A DNA stretch of 64,000 nt. Source: Bacteroidetes bacterium SB0662_bin_6 (GTDB lineage: Bacteria; Bacteroidota; Rhodothermia; Rhodothermales; VXPQ01). The DNA lies in assembly GCA_009839485.1 (NCBI GenBank), contig VXPQ01000032.1, positions 26,982-90,981 on the forward strand, read 5' to 3'. Shown one piece after another: positions 49,941-60,522 of the stretch. Under the pieces are notes generated by a model, which saw only the letters and a program-made list of their open reading frames with translations, was not told the origin of the DNA and searched no databases. Position 1 is the first letter of the stretch, and each line of letters starts with the position of its first letter. Made by a program: the position numbers and the translations under genes.

Positions 49941-50252
49941 GTGCCCCAGTCCATCCGCGTCCGCATTCTTAACCGCGACTATTCCTTGCAGGTAGAGAGG
50001 CAGGACGAGCAACGCGTACGCAGCATTGCACGATACGTCGATACGAAGATCAGGCAGTTCCAGCGGGATCATCCCGATCAGGCGGACATAACGGGCCCGG
50101 TTATCGTGGCGCTGGGCATTGCCGAGGAACTCTTTGCAGAACGCGAGAAAAAGACCGACGCAGAAACCGACCTGCATGCGGATATCGGACAACTCATTGC
50201 CTCCCTGGACGCCGTGCTGGGGGACGGTGAATCCTCGCCTTCCGGGGAATAA
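49941..50252 (+). CDS. zapA: Cell division protein ZapA
   Basis: GTG start. IRVRILNRDYSLQVERQDEQRVRSIARYVDTKI...ALGIAEEL matches the ZapA pattern. The pheT-zapA linkage is common. Confidence 0.8.
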   Translation: MPQSIRVRILNRDYSLQVERQDEQRVRSIARYVDTKIRQFQRDHPDQADITGPVIVALGIAEELFAEREKKTDAETDLHADIGQLIASLDAVLGDGESSPSGE

Positions 50253-50285
50253 GGGAGTGGGCCGGAAAAACAAATCGTCGCGTTT

Positions 50286-51029
50286 TCAATCGCCCGGGTT
50301 GCGTCCCCTGTACAGCGAAACCACCCCGAACGTCAGCGGCTTGCACAAGAGATCTACATATCCGGCCTGCCGCAACTCGTCCAGAAAGCGCTCTCCCGAC
50401 GGAAACACCTTCACAGAAGCCGGCAGATACTTATAGGCTCCCGAATTGCCCGACAGAAGACGACCGACAAAGGGCAATACGACATCCGAGTAGACCTCGT
50501 ACAACTTCCGGATCAACAATACGCCGGGCCGACTGAACTCAAGGATCACCAGCACCCCTCCTGGACGGAGCACGCGCCGCATCTCCCGGATACCGTCCTG
50601 AAGGTGCTCGAAATTTCGTACGCCAAACCCTACCAGGACCGCATCGAATGAGGCATCCGGGAATGACAAACGAGCCGCATCCCCACGCTCCAGCGTGATG
50701 GTCCCACCAAGACCCAGACGCTGAACCTTTATCCGGCCACGCGCCAGCATCTGCTCGGAAAGATCAACGCCTACGATCCGCTCCGGACCAAGCGCGGCAG
50801 CGGCAATAGCCAGATCGGCGGTGCCGGTCGCTATGTCCAGAATCCGGGCTGGCGCTTCCGCGCGCAGCAGGCGGATCGCCGCACGGCGCCACATGCGGTC
50901 GATCCCGAAACTCAGCAGGCGATTGAGCAGGTCGTACCGGGGCGCCACATCGTCGAACATGGCTTCGACGGCTTCTCTCTTGCCGGGAGCCTGTCCCGGC
51001 GGCGGGATACGGTGTGGAGATGTGGACAA
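50286..51029 (-). CDS. ubiE: Demethylmenaquinone/ubiquinone C-methyltransferase
   Basis: MFDDVAPRYDLLNRLLSFGIDRMWRR and the SAM motif ILDIATGTADLA. Confidence 0.9.
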   Translation of the reverse strand: MSTSPHRIPPPGQAPGKREAVEAMFDDVAPRYDLLNRLLSFGIDRMWRRAAIRLLRAEAPARILDIATGTADLAIAAAALGPERIVGVDLSEQMLARGRIKVQRLGLGGTITLERGDAARLSFPDASFDAVLVGFGVRNFEHLQDGIREMRRVLRPGGVLVILEFSRPGVLLIRKLYEVYSDVVLPFVGRLLSGNSGAYKYLPASVKVFPSGERFLDELRQAGYVDLLCKPLTFGVVSLYRGRNPGD

Positions 51030-51134
51030 AACGCAATGAAATATCCGTCATTCGCCCGCAACATACGCACGACCCGATGTATGGGGTCCACCCTGGTCGG
51101 AAACCCCGCGGATGCCAAAACCCGTCCCCCTGCC

Positions 51135-52112
51135 TCACAGGGCATCGGCGATGCGCCGCACCGTTTCCTCAAAGGGCCGGGGGCGCCACCCCAGTTTTTC
51201 ACAGGCAAACGTGTTGTCGTACCGGTTCACTGCGGACATGAACCGGGCATTGGCGCGGGGAAGAAGGGGTTCCGTACGTGTCAGAAAAGCGACTGCTTCC
51301 GAAGAATATGCGACGAGTATAGCGGCTGCCGGCGCCAGACGGATGGTCGGGGGCGCTGCGCCGCATGCCTGGGCCAGTTGACGGAAAAGTTCTTCCCAGG
51401 ACAGGTTATGCGCCGCCAGCACAAACCGTTCACCGGCTTCACCGTACTGCATGGCCCGCACCATGCCGTCCGCCACATCCAGTACATCGACGACACTCGT
51501 AACCCCTGCCGGAAACATAACTATCCGCTTGCGGCGAATCTGATCCACGATACGTCGGGTGTTCTCCCCTTTACGACCCAGGCCAAAAATAAGGGAGGGA
51601 TTGACCATCACCGCATCCAGACCTTCCGCAATACCTCGTTTCACCTCCAGTTCCGCAAGGTACTTCGAGTAGCCGTAGGTGCTGTTTGATTTTGACCGTT
51701 GCCATTGCGCGTTCTCGTCCAGGACGTCGTCGGGGCGGTTGGAGCGACCGAGAGCCGCCACGGACGAAGCATGAACAAGGCGGCGTACGCCCCCGGCGAG
51801 CGCCGCATTGACGACCGCTGCGGTTCCATCCACATTGACAGACATGAGCCGATTCCGCACACGAGAAGACCCGAAACCGATATTTCCGGCCACATGATAG
51901 ACGTACTCCACACCCTGCATGGCCTTTTGGAGCGCCAGATCGTCTGTGATATCCCCAAGGGCGTGCTCGACCTTCTGCGCCGTCTCGCCGAGCAAATCGA
52001 GTTTTGAGCCGGCGCGTCGGAAAACACGGACGGGAACGCCATCCAGCACAAGGCGCCGGGTCAGCACGGCCCCCACGAATCCCGTGGCCCCCGTGACAAG
52101 GGTCATCGACAT
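51135..52112 (-). CDS. NAD-dependent epimerase/dehydratase-family (extended SDR) oxidoreductase
   Basis: TGATGFVG Rossmann motif and the YxxxK context YGYSKYLAE. Confidence 0.85.
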   Translation of the reverse strand: MSMTLVTGATGFVGAVLTRRLVLDGVPVRVFRRAGSKLDLLGETAQKVEHALGDITDDLALQKAMQGVEYVYHVAGNIGFGSSRVRNRLMSVNVDGTAAVVNAALAGGVRRLVHASSVAALGRSNRPDDVLDENAQWQRSKSNSTYGYSKYLAELEVKRGIAEGLDAVMVNPSLIFGLGRKGENTRRIVDQIRRKRIVMFPAGVTSVVDVLDVADGMVRAMQYGEAGERFVLAAHNLSWEELFRQLAQACGAAPPTIRLAPAAAILVAYSSEAVAFLTRTEPLLPRANARFMSAVNRYDNTFACEKLGWRPRPFEETVRRIADAL

Positions 52113-52117
52113 GGCAA

Positions 52118-52633
52118 CTACTCTATTTCGAGAAGGAGATCGTTCTTGCCGACCGCATCGCCGGGCGCTACATGCACTGCTCGAACGGTACCCCCTCTTT
52201 CAAGACGCAATTCGTTTTCCATTTTCATGGCCTCGAGGACCAGGGCGCCGGTTCCCGCCTCGACATGTTGCCCCGGTTCCACGGCCACGGACAGGACCAT
52301 ACCAGGCATAGGCGCATGCACTTTCAGCATGTCGCTTTCAGCTCCCCCGGATAACCCGAAACGTTCAAGCAGCAGCGCCCGTTCGTCTTTCAAAGACACA
52401 TCGAACGTAGAACCGCCGACCCCTATGCGCCGACGATCCCCGGATTCTTCCAGGACCACCGCCACATAACTCTTGCCATCTATCAGCAAGGCCATGCGTT
52501 CTTCGTCAAGGCGTTCGTAGGAAAACGGGACGGTGCGGCCATTACACGTCAACTGATCCGCACGCACGGAAACATCCATAACCCGACCGGCGCATGCTAT
52601 CTGAAAATGTTCTGAGGCCTGTTTTGTCGCCAT
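52118..52633 (-). CDS. Biotin/lipoyl attachment domain protein (BCCP-like)
   Basis: C-terminal LEAMKMENEL biotinylation motif. Confidence 0.8.
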   Translation of the reverse strand: MATKQASEHFQIACAGRVMDVSVRADQLTCNGRTVPFSYERLDEERMALLIDGKSYVAVVLEESGDRRRIGVGGSTFDVSLKDERALLLERFGLSGGAESDMLKVHAPMPGMVLSVAVEPGQHVEAGTGALVLEAMKMENELRLERGGTVRAVHVAPGDAVGKNDLLLEIE

Positions 52634-52672
52634 GGTCCGGATCGGGAGCGCTTTTATGTAATATAATATACT

Positions 52673-52712
52673 CTGATTAAGTCCACTTCGCTCAGTACTT
52701 CACGTTCGCGAG
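52673..52712 (+). repeat. Copy 2 of the ~40 nt intergenic repeat
   Basis: CTGATTAAGTCCACTTCGCTCAGTACTTCACGTTCGCGAG (32/40 to 44881-44920). It ends 11 nt before the ATG at 52724 and follows an AT-rich TATAAT-containing stretch. Confidence 0.6.
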
Positions 52713-52723
52713 GATAGGTCATC

Positions 52724-53002
52724 ATGAATGCTTCCATGGACAGCGCTCCAGGTCACGCACGTACGAAGAAAATGTGGAAGTGGGTGATCCTGATCATAGG
52801 CGCCCTCTTTTTTCTTACCGTCCTGCGCGAAGCCATCGACCCGTACGGTGACCAGCCGTACATAGAGATCACGCATGGAGACCATGTCCACTATGTACCG
52901 CACGATCGGGACCCGAAGGTTTCCATCAGCAAGTTTCCCACGGTTCCACCCGGACCGGATGAAATCATTACGCCGGAAGGACGCATCGTGCCCAAGGAAT
53001 AG
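52724..53002 (+). CDS. Small membrane-anchored protein with a single histidine-triad-like motif (HGDHVHYVPH)
   Basis: One TM segment (WKWVILIIGALFFLTVL), then YIEITHGDHVHYVPHDRD. This resembles the HxxHxH (HGDH[FY]HY[IV]P) Zn-binding motif of streptococcal Pht proteins. Confidence 0.55.
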   Translation: MNASMDSAPGHARTKKMWKWVILIIGALFFLTVLREAIDPYGDQPYIEITHGDHVHYVPHDRDPKVSISKFPTVPPGPDEIITPEGRIVPKE

Positions 53003-53139
53003 CGAGTCCGACGCGGCGAGGCGCTGGCGAACATACGTACGCGCTGCGGGGCGAAGTTTTTGCCTGCGCAGCGCTCGTCCTGATTTACAATCGAGCTGTT
53101 CCCTCGGACGACGACGGGACCGCCGCGCGAAACCGCCCC

Positions 53140-55371
53140 CTACCAGAGCGCTTTGATCAATATTTTAACGTTGCGCCCCTGTTGCGGCATGATGCTCTTT
53201 ACCTTCGAAAGATGGTCCCGGTATTCGGCATTCGTGGCATTCTCCACCCCGATATCGAAGGTGTACAAAATACGACCCAGGGAAAGGTGGTACTGCGCAT
53301 GCGCCCCGAACACGACATACCCATCGGTCGGTTCCTCGAATTCCCCCAGACGATCCTGCCGCCGCGCCGCCTCCGCGGAACCGGACAGCCTGATCTTCCC
53401 GCGGGCGTACGCTGCTTCCAGCCGCCCCCGCAAGGGAGGAATGAAGGACATCGGCTCGTCGTCGTCGATTAGCGTACCCCGGACATACGCGCCCGACCCG
53501 GAAAGCGTGACGGAAGGCGCCGCCCGCAGCGAAAAGGAAGCTTCCGACCCCGTCATGCGGGCCGACGAACCGGTTTGCTGATATTCCGTCAGCAGGGTGC
53601 GCACGTTGAGCCGGCCCGTATTTCTGGGGTAAATGTAGTCCCGGATATGGTTTCGATACGCATTCAGTGATCCGGAAAAACGCGCGCTGCGGTATTCCGC
53701 GAACGCCTCGAAGCCCAACCCCTTTTCGACGCCAAGGTCCGCATTACCTATTTCGAAGGCGTAGGCCGCCAGGTGAGGCCCTGTCGAAAAAAGTTCTTCG
53801 ATCCCCGGCATGCGAATGGAGCGCACGCCACCCAGGCCCGCAGAGAAACGGTCGCCGAATCGACGCAAGACCCGCAAAGAACCGGAAACGCCCCCGGTCG
53901 TTCGGTTCCGAATCAGTCCGGCGCGCGTTACCTCGCCCACAGCGAAACGCCCGCTGGTGCGGGGACGCACGGCGCGTATATCGTACCGAAGCGCCCCCTG
54001 AAGCGACAGGTTCCTCAGATTGATATCCTGATACCGGAACGCCGCGGCCGTCCATTCCCGGGAGTTCGGCGTGAACGTAAATCCGCCGGAAGCAAAATCC
54101 CGGTGTCCGGCCCAGATACTCGTCAGACTGTTGCTTCTGCGGCCATGGACGCGGGAAAGAATCCGGCCGTAATACGACAGGAGTCCGAACTCGATGCCCA
54201 GCGTCCCGCTTGCTTCGTACTCCTGATGAAAATACCTCGAAAGCGACGCCTCGAATTCCAGATGCGGGAACCGGGGAATCGCGTCCAGCAACATGCCCTT
54301 CGCTTTCAGATAGCGGCGGGATAATTCAATGTCCACGCCCTTCGGGTGCGCCCCGACGAATCCGCCCGGTATGCCGTACCGGGAGGCGTAATAACTGCCC
54401 GAAGCGCCTGCATATCCCCACGAGCCGATGCGGCTCGCGCCGAAAGAACCGTTTCCGGTCCTCAAGTCGGTGTTGGCCAGGACGCCGACCGGCGTGGATA
54501 CGTCCCCCGCATTGCGCATGCTGCCGTCGGCGCGCCATGCAAAAGCGCCCGCGGGCGCTTCGACGCTGAACCCGCCCGAAATCCCGTCATTGGCGGATTG
54601 CCCTTGCAGCACGGCCGTGGCATGCGTCTCCGGCGGCCTGGTCGCGGGCACATATCCGCGGACCGCGTTTATCATGCCGCCCAGCGCATTCGGCCCGTAC
54701 AGCAGCGCTGCCGGACCACGCACCACCTCAATCCGTTCCGTCATTAGCGGATCTACCGCGACCGCGTGATCGGCGGACGTAGCGGACAGGTCTCCGGTGC
54801 GCCCGCCATCCTCCAGGACCAGTAGCCGCTCGCCGCCCAAACCGCGCAACACCGGGCGGGCGGGAGCGGGCCCCATGGATCGCATGGAAATGCCGGGTTC
54901 GTTGTCGAGCGTTTCGGCGATCGTCGTTCCGAGATGCTGCCGAAGCCGCTTGCCCTCCATATCCATATCGGCCTCGCGGAGCGCGACGGACTCGCGTTGC
55001 CCGTCCACGAAGACTTCCCCCAATTCAATCGGAGAAGCCGACATGCGCAGCACGACGCGAGACGTATCCGAGGCGCCGCCCACCGCAATCTGGCTCGTCA
55101 GCGACTCATAGCCTATGCGCCAGGCGGTAAGCGTGTAGACCCCCGGCTCCAGAAACCGCATCTCGAAACGGCCTTGCCGATCCGTTCTGGAACTGCGGTT
55201 GGCGTCTTCCGCCAGCACCTGGGCATGGCGCACGGGTTCTCCGGTTTCCGCATCCTCTACGGAGCCCGAGATCACCGCCGTATGCTGGGCTTGCAGCGTC
55301 CCGGCGACCGCCATCGCGCAACACGCTGCAAGCCCGGCCCGGCAAAGAAACGAAACATTGCAACAACGCAT
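53140..55371 (-). CDS. TonB-dependent receptor with N-terminal CarboxypepD_reg-like domain
   Basis: Signal peptide. ISGSVEDAETGEPV...GVYTLTAWRIGY (CarboxypepD_reg-like), a plug domain, and a 22-strand barrel pattern ending ...NVKILIKALW. Confidence 0.9.
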   Translation of the reverse strand: MRCCNVSFLCRAGLAACCAMAVAGTLQAQHTAVISGSVEDAETGEPVRHAQVLAEDANRSSRTDRQGRFEMRFLEPGVYTLTAWRIGYESLTSQIAVGGASDTSRVVLRMSASPIELGEVFVDGQRESVALREADMDMEGKRLRQHLGTTIAETLDNEPGISMRSMGPAPARPVLRGLGGERLLVLEDGGRTGDLSATSADHAVAVDPLMTERIEVVRGPAALLYGPNALGGMINAVRGYVPATRPPETHATAVLQGQSANDGISGGFSVEAPAGAFAWRADGSMRNAGDVSTPVGVLANTDLRTGNGSFGASRIGSWGYAGASGSYYASRYGIPGGFVGAHPKGVDIELSRRYLKAKGMLLDAIPRFPHLEFEASLSRYFHQEYEASGTLGIEFGLLSYYGRILSRVHGRRSNSLTSIWAGHRDFASGGFTFTPNSREWTAAAFRYQDINLRNLSLQGALRYDIRAVRPRTSGRFAVGEVTRAGLIRNRTTGGVSGSLRVLRRFGDRFSAGLGGVRSIRMPGIEELFSTGPHLAAYAFEIGNADLGVEKGLGFEAFAEYRSARFSGSLNAYRNHIRDYIYPRNTGRLNVRTLLTEYQQTGSSARMTGSEASFSLRAAPSVTLSGSGAYVRGTLIDDDEPMSFIPPLRGRLEAAYARGKIRLSGSAEAARRQDRLGEFEEPTDGYVVFGAHAQYHLSLGRILYTFDIGVENATNAEYRDHLSKVKSIMPQQGRNVKILIKALW

Positions 55372-55380
55372 GGCTCCGGG

Positions 55381-55845
55381 CTATTCTACTGTAACGGGAA
55401 TATCGGGGGTCGTGAAATCTGAATGCCCTTCGTGCAAAAGCATCACCCGTATCGCGGTGTCCCCCGCCTCGTCTCCTCCATGCAGCGCAAAGCTCCACCG
55501 ACCTTCCTCATGGACATCAACGAGGGCGGCTCCCTGCACCACGACGCCAAGGGAAAATTCATCGTCCAGTTCGTCGGCGTGCACTTCCTCGCCGTCGTGG
55601 CCCTCAAACTCCACGGTGATCTCGTCGGTTTCGTCGTCTACCGGGACGGTCAGCGACCCCTCGACCTCGCCCTCATGGACATGAACGACTTCTTCGCCGC
55701 CAATAAAAAGCAAAAGGCCTTCTACTTCGGCGTGCTCGTCATGATCATGGTCGTCCTCGGCGGGATTGTCGCAGGCGGCCAGCCCGCCCGCAAAAACGAA
55801 TATGAATACAATCACGGCTATGCCGCGCAATCGGGTTGAAAACAT
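55381..55845 (-). CDS. His/Asp/Glu-rich lipoprotein (putative metal-binding)
   Basis: Lipobox GGLAAC, then DDHDHDEHAE, VHVHEGE, EGHDGEEVH and LLHEGH. It sits 9 nt upstream of the TonB receptor start. Start moved to 55845. Confidence 0.6.
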   Translation of the reverse strand: MFSTRLRGIAVIVFIFVFAGGLAACDNPAEDDHDHDEHAEVEGLLLFIGGEEVVHVHEGEVEGSLTVPVDDETDEITVEFEGHDGEEVHADELDDEFSLGVVVQGAALVDVHEEGRWSFALHGGDEAGDTAIRVMLLHEGHSDFTTPDIPVTVE

Positions 55846-56194
55846 GGTTTTCCTCTGTTTTTGGGTTTTGGGGTGTGTTTTGCTAAATGCGCCGCCGAAA
55901 CAGCGCACGGTATCGAGTCCAGGGAGACGCTGATTACATCCGTGCGAACCAGCGTCTTAACGGGGAGAGGGGGATGCGCAGACAAGAAATGGCGACGCAG
56001 CGCGGCGGCTCCGCGCAATGAGAAAGGCCGCCGGCAGACGCGCTCCTTGCCGCCTCTCCCGTGCTGCCTCTTAAAGAGCGCTTGGCGCCTGCGAAGCCGT
56101 CGTGTTTACCGCTGATTTCAGCGATGGAGACAGGACAGCTTGCATGCGCGAACGCAAGGCGCAGATCGACGCGGATTGGATCGGCGTATCCTTA

Positions 56195-56572
56195 CTACGC
56201 CGCCGGAGGCGCGCGTATCGAGCGGTGGGAAAGGCTGCGGGCGAAGCGAACGAACCGGAGCGTCTGCCCGGTCACATGCACAGGAAGCGCCGGGGCCTGG
56301 ATTTGCTCGATAACCGAGGCAGCCAGCGAACGAAGCGCGCACAGATCGCACTCAAAATGATCCGAAGGCGCTTGTTCTTCCGAAAGAAAATCTTCCGATG
56401 CGCCGTGCGGGCACGGCAATTCGCTGCCCGCCTCCTCGGCAGGGTCCTGCGCATGCTCCAGCGAGCGGATATGCGACACGTCGTGCCCGAAAGGGGCCGC
56501 CACCATCCCGCAGAACAGCACGGCAAGCAGGAAAACCCCTGAGCGTTCGATATGTGCGCGCTTCGAAAGCAT
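56195..56572 (-). CDS. Small single-TM protein with His/Cys motifs (hypothetical)
   Basis: TM segment GVFLLAVLFCGMVAA, then FGHDVSH, CPHG and HFECDLC. The overlapping plus-strand ORF is Arg-rich and looks antisense-like. Family not recognised with confidence. Confidence 0.4.
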   Translation of the reverse strand: MLSKRAHIERSGVFLLAVLFCGMVAAPFGHDVSHIRSLEHAQDPAEEAGSELPCPHGASEDFLSEEQAPSDHFECDLCALRSLAASVIEQIQAPALPVHVTGQTLRFVRFARSLSHRSIRAPPAA

Positions 56573-56749
56573 CTATTTCGGATTTCGCAGGGGCAAGGGA
56601 AGGCGAAGGGACGGTCTCAGGGGCAAACTACAGGCGCTCCGACGATGCGCCCTGCCACACTACGCAGTAGAGGAGTACTGCAAGGGGATTGCAAAGATCC
56701 TGAAAAAGCAACGTCCGGCAAATATATTCCCCATATCCTCATCCTTCGC

Positions 56750-57313
56750 TCATTTGGTCCCCGCATACAGAGGATAATCGGCCTCGGCCTTGCCGCTGGC
56801 GACATCCCGAAGCTTACGACGAAGAAGACGCCTGCGAAATGCGCTTATGCGATCCACAAAGAAGATGCCCTCAAGATGATCCACCTCATGCTGAATCACA
56901 CGCGCCGGCAACTCCCCCACCTCCAGTTCCTGCGGCTGGAAATGGCGATCCAGATACGTCAGCCGGATTCGCTCAGAGCGCTTGACCGCCTCGGTTATAT
57001 CCGGAATGGACAAGCACCCCTCCTCAAATTCGCCTTCTTCTTCACTCTCCCAGATAATCTCGGGATTGATGAATGCCATCGGCTGTGACGCCTCCTCCGG
57101 CACAGGCTCAAACTGTATTTCCGCTGCCAGATCAGCCACGAAGATGCGCTCTGTGCGGCCCACCTGAGGAGCAGCCAGACCAATGCCCGATGCGCCCCGC
57201 ATGGTCTCGATCATATCGTCGATAAGTTGCTGGACACTGGCACTGTCCCCGGCGACATCTTCAGCGCCGTTCCTGAGCACGGGATCGCCATATAAACGAA
57301 TAGGAAGAATCAT
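56750..57313 (-). CDS. def: Peptide deformylase
   Basis: GIGLAAPQVG, EGCLS and HEVDHLEG motifs. Start moved to 57313 (MILPIRLYGDPVL). Confidence 0.95.
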   Translation of the reverse strand: MILPIRLYGDPVLRNGAEDVAGDSASVQQLIDDMIETMRGASGIGLAAPQVGRTERIFVADLAAEIQFEPVPEEASQPMAFINPEIIWESEEEGEFEEGCLSIPDITEAVKRSERIRLTYLDRHFQPQELEVGELPARVIQHEVDHLEGIFFVDRISAFRRRLLRRKLRDVASGKAEADYPLYAGTK

Positions 57314-57323
57314 AAGAACCGGA

Positions 57324-57758
57324 TCAGGATGTTTGCTCCTGTGTCTCGTCAATATAATCCTGAAGAATGACTGCGGCAGCGGCGGCATCTATTCTTTCCT
57401 TCCGCCGGCGGGCTTTCTTCCGAACGCCCGATCGGACCAGCAAATTCCTTGCCCGGACCGAGGAATACCGTTCATCCTGCATAACGACTTTCTTGCCGGG
57501 AAACCGCCTGGAAAGAAGGCGAATGAAAGGCTGTACAACATCCGTAGCCGGTCCCTCCTCTCCCGACAGGGTCAAAGGCCACCCCACAACGATCGTGTCA
57601 AATCCGGGATCGGTATTCAGGGACGCAAGCTGCCGTATTGCCTCGTCACTGGAGTACGCCCCAAGGGATTGCGCATACAGCCGAAGCGGGTCGGACATGG
57701 CCAGGCCGATTCGCTGCGTGCCGTAGTCGATACCGATGATGCGAGGCAATGCGTCCAT
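57324..57758 (-). CDS. ruvX: Holliday-junction resolvase-like RuvX/YqgF
   Basis: IIGIDYGTQRIGLAMSD N-terminus and DERYSS motif. Start moved to 57758. Confidence 0.9.
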   Translation of the reverse strand: MDALPRIIGIDYGTQRIGLAMSDPLRLYAQSLGAYSSDEAIRQLASLNTDPGFDTIVVGWPLTLSGEEGPATDVVQPFIRLLSRRFPGKKVVMQDERYSSVRARNLLVRSGVRKKARRRKERIDAAAAAVILQDYIDETQEQTS

Positions 57759-57771
57759 ACAATCTGATAGC

Positions 57772-58164
57772 CTACGATGCTTCGGCAGCATCAGGGGTTT
57801 GCATGGAATCGCCGGCTATATGCTCATCCGGAATCCGATGCGTCGATTCAGGCAAGGGCTCCTGCAAAACCTTCTTTAGCCGCTTGCCCGGTCTGAAATG
57901 TGTCTTGCGCCGGCCGGGTACAAAGATCGTCTCGTTCGTTCTCGGGTTGCGGGCCTTTGGCCTGGCTTTGGTCTTTTTGACCTCGAATACGCCAAAATCG
58001 CGCAACTCGATGCGCACCTCCGGATCGGCATCGATCATGATATCACGGATGGCATGGATAACCGCTCGAACCCAGGGTTCCACCTTGTAAACCGGCTCAC
58101 CCATGGATTCTGCAACCCGACGAGCCACATCTTTCCGGGTCTGCGTACCGGATGCATCGGACAT
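57772..58164 (-). CDS. HU/IHF-family DNA-binding protein with C-terminal extension
   Basis: RIELRDFGVFEVKKTKARPKARNPRTNETIFVPGRRKTHFRPGKRL is the beta-arm region of the HU/IHF family. Confidence 0.85.
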   Translation of the reverse strand: MSDASGTQTRKDVARRVAESMGEPVYKVEPWVRAVIHAIRDIMIDADPEVRIELRDFGVFEVKKTKARPKARNPRTNETIFVPGRRKTHFRPGKRLKKVLQEPLPESTHRIPDEHIAGDSMQTPDAAEAS

Positions 58165-58278
58165 GGTGTTAGTCCCTCCTATAACCCTTTGGGATAAATG
58201 AACTTATCGAAAAAAAACGAGCAATAGTTTACGGAAAAAAGAAGACGACTTACAAGCTTCACAGGCAAAAAAGCCCCA

Positions 58279-60522
58279 TCACTCCTCAAACCGGTACACT
58301 CCGTGAATCCCGTCGATGCGCTTCAGTCGCTCAATAAGGCGGCGAAGATGCGACAAATCCGTCACCGAGCACACGATCGTGCCCTCAAAAACGCCATCCT
58401 CGGAATCCACCGTGATGGAACGAATATTTGTTTTCAGGTTTTTGGAAATAACGGTCGTAATATCGCTTACCATCCCCACGCGATCCTCTCCCATCACGCG
58501 CAGGCCGGACAGGAATTGCACGTCTTTCTGCCTGCTCCATTCCACCGATACAATACGGTCAGGATGGTTTACGAGCAGGCTGGGAGCATTCCGGCAATTA
58601 ATGCGATGAATCTTTATACCGTCGCTGCGGCTTATGTAGCCGAACACATCGTCGCCGGGGATCGGATTGCAGCAAGGGGCATACCGCGTAACGATGTCGG
58701 TATGTAATTCACCGTCGATTTCGAGCGCCGGACGGGCCGCCACCTGAGCCGAATCCAGAAAATTTTCGTACCGTAACCGAAGGCCTTCCTCCTCGGCAAC
58801 TTCTTCTTCCTCTTCCTTTCGCCCACGGGACTCGTTCCTGATGAACTCCACAAAGTCCTTCGGATCGAAAAGTCCCGTCCCGATCTCATAGAACATTTGC
58901 TGGGCGTTCGGAAACTTGAGTCGGTTAGCTGCTCTGCGCAACTTTTGTTCTTCCACATTCAGACCGGCTTTATCCAGCTTTTTCTCGAGCATTTCCCGGC
59001 CCAGATCCATGCTGCGGCGGCGCTTTTCATTGATTGAATGCCGAATTCTGCTGCGCGCCTTGTGCGTAACGACAAACTTCATCCAGTCGGGATTCGGCGT
59101 TTGCTTCTTCGATGAAATGATCTCCACCTGATCGCCACTCTGAAGTTTATACGAAAGCGGCACCATCCTGCCGTTCACTTTCGCACCGATGCAATGCATG
59201 CCTATTTCCGTATGGACCTGAAATGCAAAATCGACAGGGGTTGCATTACGAGGCAGTGTCATCAAATCCCCTTTGGGGGTGAAGATATATATTTCTTCGT
59301 CGTACAGATTGAGTCGAAACTCCTTGACAAACTCCGTGGCATGTTCGGGATTGGGGTTTTCAAGAATATCCCGCACCCACGCAAGGAATTGCTCCATTCC
59401 CCGGTCCTTATCACTCACGGCCTCCTTGTACTTCCAGTGCGCCGCCACGCCGCGCTCGGCGATGGCATGCATTTCCTCCGTGCGGATCTGTACTTCCACC
59501 CGGCGCCCTGTTGGACCAAGAACCGTCGTGTGGAGACTCTGGTAGCCGTTGGACTTGGGCACCGAAATAAAATCCCGGAAGCGCTCCGGCAACGGTTTGT
59601 ATAAATCCGTAATGATCGAATACACTCTCCAGCAATCTTCTTTTCCTTTTTTTCCGGTGCTTTTCAGGACAATACGAATGGCAAGCAGGTCGTAAATCTC
59701 TTCGATCGGCTTATCCGTCCGCTTCATCTTCCGCCAGATCGAATAGAGATTCTTCGACCGGCCGGCCATCTCGAAATCGAAGCCGTCACTCTCGAGGCGC
59801 TCCCGCAACGGCTCGATAAAACGGCGCACATAGCCGTCCCGCTCAACTTTGGACGCCTGCAAACTTCGCACAATATCGCGGTATTCTTCCGGGTGGAGGA
59901 TTTTCAGGGAAATATCTTCCAACTCGGCCTTGATGACGTGCAACCCGAAACGATGGGCAAGCGGCGCAAAGAGATCCAGGGTCTCACTCGCAATCTTGAG
60001 TTGCTTTTGTTTTTGAAGCGACTCGATGGTGCGCAGATTGTGCAAACGATCTGCAAACTTTATGAGAATGACGCGAATGTCCGTCGCCATGGAAAGCATG
60101 AGCTTCCGGACATTTTCCGCCTGACCCAGTTCGCGATTCCAGGAAACCCCCCGGATCTTGGTCAATCCGTCGACGATGTTCGACACCGTGTCGCCGAATT
60201 CTTCTCGTATGAGGTCCAGGGAAAACTCAGTGTCTTCCACGGTATCGTGCAATAGGGCCGAGACGACACTTATGTCATCAAAGCCGATATCCCTTGCCAC
60301 GATCACCGCCACCTCGATCGGGTGCGTGATGAATCGTTCCCCCGAGGCTCGCCGATCGTTGCGATGCGCCCAGTAACCCAGCATGAAGGCGCGGCGAATC
60401 ATATCCTCATCCACCGACCACAGAGATTGCCGGCACGCATCGAGCAATTCGTCGAGCCCGGCCTCGAATTCCGGTTCGACCTGCAAATCGGTATTGCTCA
60501 GGATGGAAGAAGCTCGCAACAT
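58279..60522 (-). CDS. Bifunctional (p)ppGpp synthetase/hydrolase (RelA/SpoT homologue)
   Basis: HD domain (HPIEVA...LHDTVEDT), a synthetase domain (RSKNLYSIWRKM...DLLAIRIV...YQSLHTTV), and TGS and ACT domains. Confidence 0.95.
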   Translation of the reverse strand: MLRASSILSNTDLQVEPEFEAGLDELLDACRQSLWSVDEDMIRRAFMLGYWAHRNDRRASGERFITHPIEVAVIVARDIGFDDISVVSALLHDTVEDTEFSLDLIREEFGDTVSNIVDGLTKIRGVSWNRELGQAENVRKLMLSMATDIRVILIKFADRLHNLRTIESLQKQKQLKIASETLDLFAPLAHRFGLHVIKAELEDISLKILHPEEYRDIVRSLQASKVERDGYVRRFIEPLRERLESDGFDFEMAGRSKNLYSIWRKMKRTDKPIEEIYDLLAIRIVLKSTGKKGKEDCWRVYSIITDLYKPLPERFRDFISVPKSNGYQSLHTTVLGPTGRRVEVQIRTEEMHAIAERGVAAHWKYKEAVSDKDRGMEQFLAWVRDILENPNPEHATEFVKEFRLNLYDEEIYIFTPKGDLMTLPRNATPVDFAFQVHTEIGMHCIGAKVNGRMVPLSYKLQSGDQVEIISSKKQTPNPDWMKFVVTHKARSRIRHSINEKRRRSMDLGREMLEKKLDKAGLNVEEQKLRRAANRLKFPNAQQMFYEIGTGLFDPKDFVEFIRNESRGRKEEEEEVAEEEGLRLRYENFLDSAQVAARPALEIDGELHTDIVTRYAPCCNPIPGDDVFGYISRSDGIKIHRINCRNAPSLLVNHPDRIVSVEWSRQKDVQFLSGLRVMGEDRVGMVSDITTVISKNLKTNIRSITVDSEDGVFEGTIVCSVTDLSHLRRLIERLKRIDGIHGVYRFEE

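Follow-up and report, generated by a model that had tools for sequence, protein, structure and literature searches.

What does a bacterium take up through a gene cluster that pairs a TonB-dependent receptor with a histidine-rich lipoprotein and a small membrane protein rich in His and Cys, and how is that uptake controlled? The question is raised by a locus at positions 52724-56572 of a 64,000-nucleotide (nt) stretch of Bacteroidetes bacterium SB0662_bin_6 (Rhodothermales, VXPQ01; assembly GCA_009839485.1, contig VXPQ01000032.1, positions 26,982-90,981 of the forward strand). This whole stretch is called the window here, and coordinates are positions within it unless a contig (C) or comparison locus (L) is named. 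The source is a metagenome-assembled genome, and comparison locus L004 is practically identical to the window locus in sequence. An earlier note, written from the letters alone, had described four open reading frames (ORFs): the small membrane protein, the lipoprotein, the receptor and a convergent 92-residue protein with a histidine triad. All four are present at the positions and on the strands that it gave (Table 1). We propose that the first three, with the small ORF acting as a leader, probably make up a unit that takes up a divalent metal in free ionic form at the outer membrane, Zn2+ being the likeliest candidate.

The spread of the locus defines which genes belong together. A combined pattern and tblastn scan with the lipoprotein alignment yielded 44 loci from Rhodothermales, Balneolaceae, Ignavibacteria, Gemmatimonadota, KSB1 and Zixibacteria. 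A receptor homologue adjoins the lipoprotein gene in every one of them, downstream in most and upstream in Gemmatimonadota, and a small same-strand ORF ending in [RK][AGS]PP plus one to five residues comes first in all 43 loci that have upstream DNA. Beyond this three-gene core, no other conserved neighbour, including genes that would name the metal, was found across the 35 distant loci (L013-L047). Within the Rhodothermales clade of the window, gene order is conserved as relA, HU, ruvX, def, small ORF, lipoprotein and receptor, followed by the opposed 92-residue gene, BCCP (biotin carboxyl carrier protein) and an epimerase, so synteny by itself is uninformative on function there. Lack of conservation of the small ORFs had been named beforehand as grounds for abandoning the metal reading; all of the products were found as conserved proteins in related genomes.

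The receptor, which starts 9 nt past the lipoprotein stop and comprises CarboxypepD_reg, Plug and TonB barrel domains (Pfam), is ZnuD-like in sequence. ZnuD (NF038289) is the best of the 25 NCBIfam receptor models that match it, at 179 bits against a cut-off of 950, and ZnuD is also the best solved structure in a single-sequence search (E 5.5e-34). A profile of 25 family members finds ZnuD at 6.9e-84, followed by the haem receptor PhuR at 1e-33 and the copper receptor OprC at 3e-30. The buried zinc of ZnuD is held by Asp99, His100, Glu340 and His499 (PMC4557270), which are numbered 113, 114, 354 and 513 in the PDB chain, always 14 higher. Their counterparts in the alignment with the window receptor are D201, H202, E384 and H533, and all four are invariant in the 25 family members. 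The locus does have the look of a metal acquisition unit, as proposed, and the closest characterized relative of its receptor is a zinc transporter whose four ligands are conserved. The two His/Asp-rich clusters of ZnuD loop 3, which serve as a "fishing net", have no counterpart in the receptor, where no 15 residues hold more than two His; it is the neighbouring lipoprotein that has a cluster of this sort, at its N-terminus. By alignment, then, the receptor is a ZnuD-like protein that keeps the four putative zinc ligands and has no capture loop.

The same matches bear on the idea that the receptor imports haem or a metal chelate (metallophore), with the lipoprotein as a hemophore-like or chelate-binding partner. 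Haem receptors are the second-best family matches (the TIGR01785 model at 133 bits, besides PhuR), the ZnuD site overlaps the haem site of haem receptors (PMC4557270), and the copper transporter CrtA takes up its metal in chelated form (PMC12914433). We regard this alternative as very improbable, because all four ion ligands of ZnuD are invariant, although the Asp and the Glu among them would be superfluous in a haem site, because conserved genes for biosynthesis or for the processing of chelates are lacking near the 35 distant loci, and because the lipoprotein is a small, predicted Ig-like domain whose His3-Asp signature is of a kind usual at ion sites. A copper receptor is also distant: the OprC-type model TIGR01778 gives 65 bits against a cut-off of 472, and CrtA (BfrG), which is under CruR control, forms a separate receptor cluster (PMC12914433). 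CrtA by name is not among the PDB matches of the receptor, and it is by this published description that the two are set apart.

The lipoprotein matches no Pfam or NCBIfam model. Its family is marked by H38 and H138-x-x-H141-x-D143-F-T-T (H...HxxHxDFTT). The lipobox Cys (C25), H138, H141 and D143 are invariant in 36 of 36 cross-phylum sequences, and H38 is kept in 35; lipobox Cys apart, no Met or Cys is conserved. AlphaFold2 models the protein as a beta-sandwich with a predicted local distance difference test score (pLDDT) of 78 overall and above 84 over residues 41-154. A Foldseek search of the PDB with this model returned generic immunoglobulin (Ig)- and filamin-like folds only, with no PCuAC, CopC, YcnI or ZinT among them. 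The analogy with ZinT and PCuAC that had been drawn before found no support. The mature N-terminus, DDHDHDEHAE, resembles the ZnuD loop cluster HDDDNAHAHTH, and it may be that the lipoprotein supplies ion capture in trans, the job of ZnuD loop 3. On sequence and predicted fold, the lipoprotein is a new, unannotated Ig-like domain family with a nearly or fully invariant His3-Asp signature, always encoded beside this receptor type. The family occurs in 130 of 251 sampled genomes of the class and accounts for 1,008 representative clusters in a library of 1.84 billion proteins. The domain is also found in two to five tandem copies in many proteins of 270-695 amino acids (P0047-P0195; loci L035-L047). 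A few of these multi-copy forms have weak C-terminal matches to type IX secretion system (T9SS) sorting domains or dockerins, which hint at action of the domain at the cell surface.

The first gene of the unit is best read as a distant leader peptide of the CruR/CutF (DUF2946) type. It had been listed as a small transmembrane protein with FGHDVSH, CPHG and HFECDLC, and its C-terminal RAPP had been overlooked; the CxxC, the terminal RAPP and the likeness to DUF2946 point instead to a regulatory peptide. In Bordetella, copper relieves the stall of CruR at a C-terminal RAPP, and Rho then terminates transcription ahead of the gene for a TonB transporter (PMC9426467). In Rhodobacter CutF, copper-induced stalling melts a stem-loop that masks the ribosome-binding site of the next gene (PMC9973294; bioRxiv 10.1101/2025.02.05.636593). 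RAPP, RGPP and RSPP are either established as arrest motifs or permissive for arrest, and proteomes are otherwise poor in them through avoidance (PMC10951233, PMC12992588). The window leader matches PF11162 (DUF2946) from profile position 4 to 117 of 117, at E 0.014 and 16.6 bits against a gathering score of 23.7, and all eight clade members match DUF2946 (best E 4.4e-5). For this protein, then, the claim that no family could be named no longer holds, a full-length if sub-threshold match having been found.

The architecture of the leader agrees with this assignment. Its basic N-terminus is followed by hydrophobic GVFLLAVLFCGMVAAPF, which is positive in a crude hydrophobic-window test for a membrane segment, and then by an invariant His cluster, APFGHxxSHIRxLEH, that is extra to the canonical members. 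The alignment columns of CDLC and IRAPP are invariant in eight relatives, and the protein ends in IRAPPAA, which places RAPP two residues ahead of the stop. Canonical CruR members have 45 +/- 2 residues between CxxC and RAPP (PMC9426467). The distance from CxxC to the Arg of RAPP is 41 residues in the window and in all clade members and 42 in Balneolaceae, hence 41-42 in Rhodothermia, and the distance from Cys to RAPP is 44-45 in Ignavibacteria and Gemmatimonadaceae. The window leader thus falls outside the canonical range, but the distance is fixed in each lineage, so that the spacing principle holds even though the number differs. This lineage-specific yet fixed spacing is new. As with CruR and CutF, the leader is the first gene and is followed by a spacer and then, here, by the lipoprotein and TonB receptor genes.

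The combination of features is rare in the genome itself. Among 12,983 ORFs of 60-200 amino acids, 17 end in R[AGS]PP plus zero to five residues, and in only two of the 17 is this end combined with a membrane segment at the N-terminus and a CxxC placed 41-43 residues upstream. These two are the window leader and a second CruR-like leader of 103 amino acids (C36:41182-41493; L048:3183-3494), which has a membrane segment, PPLHTISHFGEEHH, CAPC and a terminal RAPPLTG. Past a spacer of about 530 nt, the second leader is followed by an operon (to L048:13808) that encodes an ATP-binding cassette (ABC) ATPase, two ABC-2 permeases with DUF3526, a DUF5916/CBM9 protein, a TonB receptor that most resembles the myxochelin receptor MxcH and a DUF4374 protein. 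This leader type therefore serves at least two different uptake systems in the same genome. The receptor of the second operon is siderophore-like and gives no help in deciding the metal.

The small ORF might instead encode a stable, membrane-anchored periplasmic metal-binding protein, either a metallochaperone or a receptor partner, with an incidental RAPP end. Its membrane anchor, its several His and Cys residues and the protein-level conservation outside both motifs (for example APFGHxxSHIRxLEH and FLxEE) would suit such a role. This is nevertheless quite unlikely. Proteomes strongly avoid RAPP-like termini save in arrest peptides (PMC12992588), and the terminus alone is kept in 43 of 43 loci, while the remainder diverges to below 20% identity. 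Apart from the membrane segment, the His cluster, the Cys motif and the terminus, the cross-phylum leaders have little in common (mean column identity 19%). Furthermore, the distance from Cys to RAPP is fixed, the RAPP codons of relatives pair with the Shine-Dalgarno (SD) sequence of the next gene, and the products of CruR and CutF are degraded fast (PMC9426467, PMC9973294).

It is this pairing in relatives that suggests how a leader of this type could act. Minimum free energy folds of 10 Rhodothermales relatives, with spacers of 62-159 nt, pair the Ala-Pro-Pro codons GCUCCUCC with the lipoprotein SD GAGGAGAGC, which lies 3-6 nt before the ATG. In the same folds, the final codons and stop of the leader (GUGUCUUGA) pair with UCAAGACAC, and between these two pairings lies a GC-rich hairpin with a U-run after it. 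The pairing with the SD shows compensatory changes in L013 (GUCCUG/CAGGAC) and L015 (GCUCCCCC/GGGUGGGAGC). When duplex energies with the SD region are ranked, the RAPP window comes first or within the top five of about 364 windows per leader. Codon choice is also skewed: although CCU accounts for just 12% of the Pro codons in the genome, 13 of 14 clade leaders have it as the first Pro codon. An Rfam scan of 50000-60000 (E <= 1) returned nothing, which indicates that the gap holds no known riboswitch, and scans for sigma-70 promoters and terminators found no more than in shuffled sequence.

These elements can be assembled into a proposed mechanism. The lipoprotein would capture the ion at the outer membrane and hand it to the buried site of the receptor, through which import would be powered by TonB. 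No inner-membrane transporter adjoins the locus, as had been seen before, and an AztC/ZnuA-type ABC system encoded elsewhere in the genome would carry the ion over the inner membrane. A ribosome translating the leader would stall at RAPP. In close relatives, the stalled ribosome would cover the Ala-Pro-Pro codons that are otherwise paired with the lipoprotein SD, and since the SD would be freed in this way, stalling is proposed to switch lipoprotein translation on. Metal bound to the Cys/His motif of the nascent peptide would release the stall, as in CruR, and uptake would be turned off. A larger joint claim follows the same lines: that the leader is a zinc- rather than copper-sensing RAPP arrest peptide whose stall codons are themselves the anti-SD, that it replaces Zur for the outer-membrane step in bacteria of the Fibrobacteres-Chlorobi-Bacteroidetes (FCB) group, and that the HxxHxDFTT lipoprotein is a new surface zinc-capture module acting in trans. 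Taken whole, this claim is tentative, and we consider it rather doubtful that every part of it will hold.

The copy in the window departs from this scheme. The GC-rich gap of about 350 nt remarked on in the earlier note measures 349 nt between leader and lipoprotein, and it is mostly a dispersed repeat, which had gone unrecognized. The gap exists because an element of about 274 nt, resembling a miniature inverted-repeat transposable element (MITE), has inserted after the leader; it lies at the leader stop in the window, L004 and L005 and has terminal inverted repeats of the type AAGGATAC...GTATCCTT. Sequence to the right of the insertion (AGCGTCTCC...) was considered as a native remnant of the leader tail, but alignment with other copies identified it as the right inverted terminus of the repeat, and the idea was rejected. 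The window SD has drifted to AGAGGAAAAC, and the window RAPP codons fold locally; their duplex with the SD region amounts to -6.1 kcal/mol, with 34 of 367 windows doing better. As the repeat has separated the RNA partners and their complementarity has decayed, the window copy has probably lost the translational switch. It would then be either deregulated or controlled by polarity alone, exerted across the long untranslated spacer. That a mobile repeat has naturally disrupted the proposed switch in the window genome is itself new.

The repeat belongs to a family of about 260 nt with inverted repeats at its ends (AAGGATAC(T)CTGAT...ATCAGAGTATCCTT) and flanks rich in TA. With one copy as query, blastn finds 72 hits across the 2.9-Mb genome, and other copies lie on many contigs, for example at C41:35457-35732, C36:163-416, C33:17768-18023 and C11:38776-39034. 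L007, L008 and L009 have related elements of different lengths directly past the stop codon of the leader, a recurrence that points to a preferred target at this spot.

Table 1. Features of the locus, as positions within the 64,000-nt window
Feature	Position	Strand	Remarks
Leader upstream ORF (uORF)	56195..56572	-	125 codons plus stop; N-terminal membrane segment at about residues 12-28, His cluster APFGHDVSHIRSLEH, CDLC, IRAPPAA and stop
CDLC, residues 75-78, presumed metal-sensing CxxC	56339..56350	-	invariant in 8 relatives
RAPP arrest-motif codons CGC GCG CCT CCG, residues 120-123	56204..56215	-	two codons ahead of stop
MITE-like dispersed repeat of about 274 nt, at leader stop codon	55921..56194	-	not in relatives with 62-72-nt spacers
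Remnant of conserved GC-rich, terminator-like leader hairpin GUGCGCUGUUUCGGCGGCGCAU	55887..55908	-	from alignment with relatives and folds; U-run degraded in window
SD-like AGAGGA 5' of lipoprotein ATG	55851..55856	-	relatives: GAGGAGAGC
Lipoprotein, 154 amino acids from ATG	55381..55845	-	lipobox LAAC, acidic/His tail DDHDHDEHAE, predicted Ig-like beta-sandwich
TonB-dependent receptor, ZnuD type, 743 amino acids	53140..55371	-	N-terminal CarboxypepD_reg; putative ligands D201, H202, E384, H533
Single-pass membrane protein, 92 amino acids	52724..53002	+	one histidine-triad-like unit PYIEITHGDHVHYVPHDRD; convergent with receptor; unit membership uncertain

Which metal the unit carries is the narrower question. 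The chances of zinc appear about even, copper is given a distinctly smaller share, and another ion or a chelate takes the remainder. In favour of zinc are the ZnuD ligand set of the receptor, the His3-Asp signature of the lipoprotein with its lack of conserved Met or Cys and its His/Asp tails, the His-rich sensors of some leaders (for example HDHEYDGHDHDNCPAH in Zixibacteria) and the adjoining 92-residue protein with its unit of the zinc-binding Pht type. Also, DUF2946 genes head zinc-efflux operons in Caulobacter (PMC4176598). The genome encodes one metal-binding protein of cluster A-I, whose nearest match is the zinc protein AztC, together with its ATPase (C33:57089-57910, L051). Its single Fur-family regulator best matches the ferric uptake regulator (C3:6939-7298, L052), and no recognizable Zur or ZIP-family transporter was found in it. 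By eye, no Zur box had been seen at the locus; likewise, a pattern search for boxes of the type GTTAT-N3-ATAAC found no more matches than chance, and a search for inverted repeats upstream found none. A weak Zur-box-like sequence, TTTTATGTAATATAA (3 mismatches), lies at 52652-52666, in the spacer from which the BCCP and 92-residue genes diverge, and such sequences are no commoner in the window than in shuffled DNA.

An operon of the same architecture could serve copper, as a CruR-type, copper-repressed uptake operon that supplies cuproenzymes in the manner of bp2923-bfrG/crtA in Bordetella. The characterized leaders of this family sense copper only, through CxxC or CxxxC (PMC9426467, PMC9973294), and the leader described here has a CxxC at a conserved distance from RAPP. 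RAPP uORFs ahead of TonB receptors are listed under copper and metal homeostasis contexts (PMC12992588), and Cu(II) could bind at His-rich sites. We judge copper possible but unlikely, given that the receptor is much closer to ZnuD than to OprC or the separate CrtA/BfrG cluster, as shown by the scores above, and that neither receptor nor lipoprotein has a conserved Met/Cys-rich motif of the Cu(I) type. Furthermore, no PCuAC, Sco, YcnI, CopC or PepSY gene adjoins any of the 35 distant loci, and several leaders have a single Cys and His clusters in place of CxxC.

Several results weigh against a ZnuD-type unit governed by a zinc-sensing arrest peptide. The window receptor lies far below the NCBIfam cut-off for ZnuD, and the window leader lies below the Pfam gathering score. 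Outside the clade, DUF2946 is matched by only 8 of 35 cross-phylum leaders (best E 2.5e-6), and a single Cys (CP.. or C-P-x-x) replaces CxxC in several distant lineages. The DUF2946 leaders studied so far all sense copper (PMC9426467, PMC9973294), and a His2-Asp-Glu or His3-Asp site could equally bind Cu(II), Ni, Co or Mn. Pairing with the SD is not seen in the AT-rich Balneolaceae or Ignavibacteria, and it is lost in the window itself. RNAalifold, applied to an automatic alignment of eight leaders, gave the outer helix and inner hairpin and missed the anti-SD helix, owing to the poor alignment of L013 and L015; what supports the pairing is accordingly the folds of individual sequences and the duplex-energy ranking.

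The 92-residue protein, which carries HGDHVHYVPH, is plausible as a member of the system. That it is a real, conserved gene is confirmed; its link to the unit, which the earlier note had assumed, comes solely from synteny in one clade. The protein is confined to this Rhodothermales clade, always in the same syntenic slot, and is absent from the examined loci of more distant lineages that carry the three-gene unit. Its family forms 17 clusters in which YIEITHGDHVHYVP...PPGP.E.IT..GRIVP is nearly invariant; YIEITHGDHVHYVP itself is nearly invariant in an alignment of 15 homologues and agrees with the Pht core motif HGDH(Y/F)HY(I/V)P. AlphaFold2 predicts one long helix followed by a beta-hairpin (residues 46-59) that bears the triad (pLDDT 84), and Foldseek returned nothing with this model. 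A profile search of 177,635 PDB sequences placed PhtA and PhtD first and second, below significance at E 0.19 and 0.6, and the single unit scores 14.9 bits with the Pht family PF04270, against a cut-off of 27. At L050:1544-1783, the gene is frameshifted directly before the triad (P0046 reads ...YIEISPRKPCPL...), which indicates that it is dispensable in at least one lineage.

Variants of the locus occur in other relatives. A tandem second leader and receptor, without a lipoprotein, are found in some of them (L011:1718-1873, L014:1985-2140, L020:7902-8234, also L030). The tandem-copy receptors include L014:2208-4436, which is 77% identical to the window receptor, and L020:8286-10439. Between the receptor and the 92-residue gene, L001 has a 172-residue ORF of (V)HTEVQK(V) repeats (L001:8737-9255) that is not in the window.

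To our knowledge, nascent-peptide control of metal uptake has so far been demonstrated for copper in Proteobacteria only. A zinc-type version, if true, would extend the principle to a second metal and also to phyla in which little is known of Zur/Fur-type control (Rhodothermia, Ignavibacteria, Gemmatimonadota and their neighbours). It would also give a candidate function to a lipoprotein domain family that has no annotation and comprises about 1,000 sequence clusters, and it would set out a testable split of tasks, with the lipoprotein capturing the ion and the ZnuD-like receptor acting as the gate. For annotation, small "hypothetical membrane proteins" that end in RAPP ahead of TonB receptor genes would be called leaders, not structural genes. 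That RAPP uORFs precede TonB receptor genes across Gram-negative phyla is already reported (PMC12992588). What is new is that such a leader goes together with a ZnuD-type receptor and a dedicated lipoprotein domain that has no annotation, and that the three genes form a fixed unit across the FCB group.

Comparison with known systems places each component. Like ZnuD of Neisseria meningitidis (PDB 4RDR; PMC4557270, PMC2895646), the receptor has the four residues that align with the buried zinc ligands and belongs to the same haem-receptor-like branch of TonB transporters. Unlike ZnuD, it lacks the His/Asp-rich loop 3 clusters, has an N-terminal CarboxypepD_reg domain and is of a type always paired with a dedicated lipoprotein and a putative stalling leader; no Zur box was found for it. 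The 92-residue protein compares with pneumococcal PhtA and PhtD (PF04270; PDB 2CS7, 9P1V), in that YIEITHGDHVHYVP matches their zinc-binding unit (A)YIVPHGDHYHYIP almost residue for residue. It differs from them in having one unit instead of five or six, in being anchored by one transmembrane helix in a diderm, and in its sub-significant scores and lack of a fold match.

The leader finds its closest parallels in CruR (Bp2923), upstream of bfrG/crtA in B. pertussis (PMC9426467), and in R. capsulatus CutF (PMC9973294). In all of these, the first ORF is small and has an N-terminal signal for export or for the membrane, the spacing between its Cys motif and a C-terminal RAPP, two to three residues ahead of the stop, is fixed, and an untranslated spacer and a TonB-dependent transporter come next. 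As with CutF, an RNA element is predicted to mask the SD that belongs to the following gene, in the relatives but not in the window. The small RAPP/RGPP uORFs of the published survey are likewise small exported proteins that carry a RAPP-like motif C-terminally, ahead of TonB receptor genes; the survey is generic, and the part available gives no account of a ZnuD-type receptor, a lipoprotein partner, fixed Cys spacing or a codon-level anti-SD (PMC12992588). Unlike CruR and CutF, the window leader matches its family below the Pfam cut-off, has a spacing of 41 instead of 45 residues and carries an extra invariant His cluster. Its hosts (Rhodothermia, Ignavibacteria, Gemmatimonadota, KSB1 and Zixibacteria) lie beyond the phyla listed for DUF2946, and the receptor of the unit is of the ZnuD type, not CrtA or OprC, with no PepSY partner. 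Ultimately, the unit follows a regulatory principle already described for copper, with the difference that the predicted anti-SD is formed by the Ala-Pro-Pro codons themselves.

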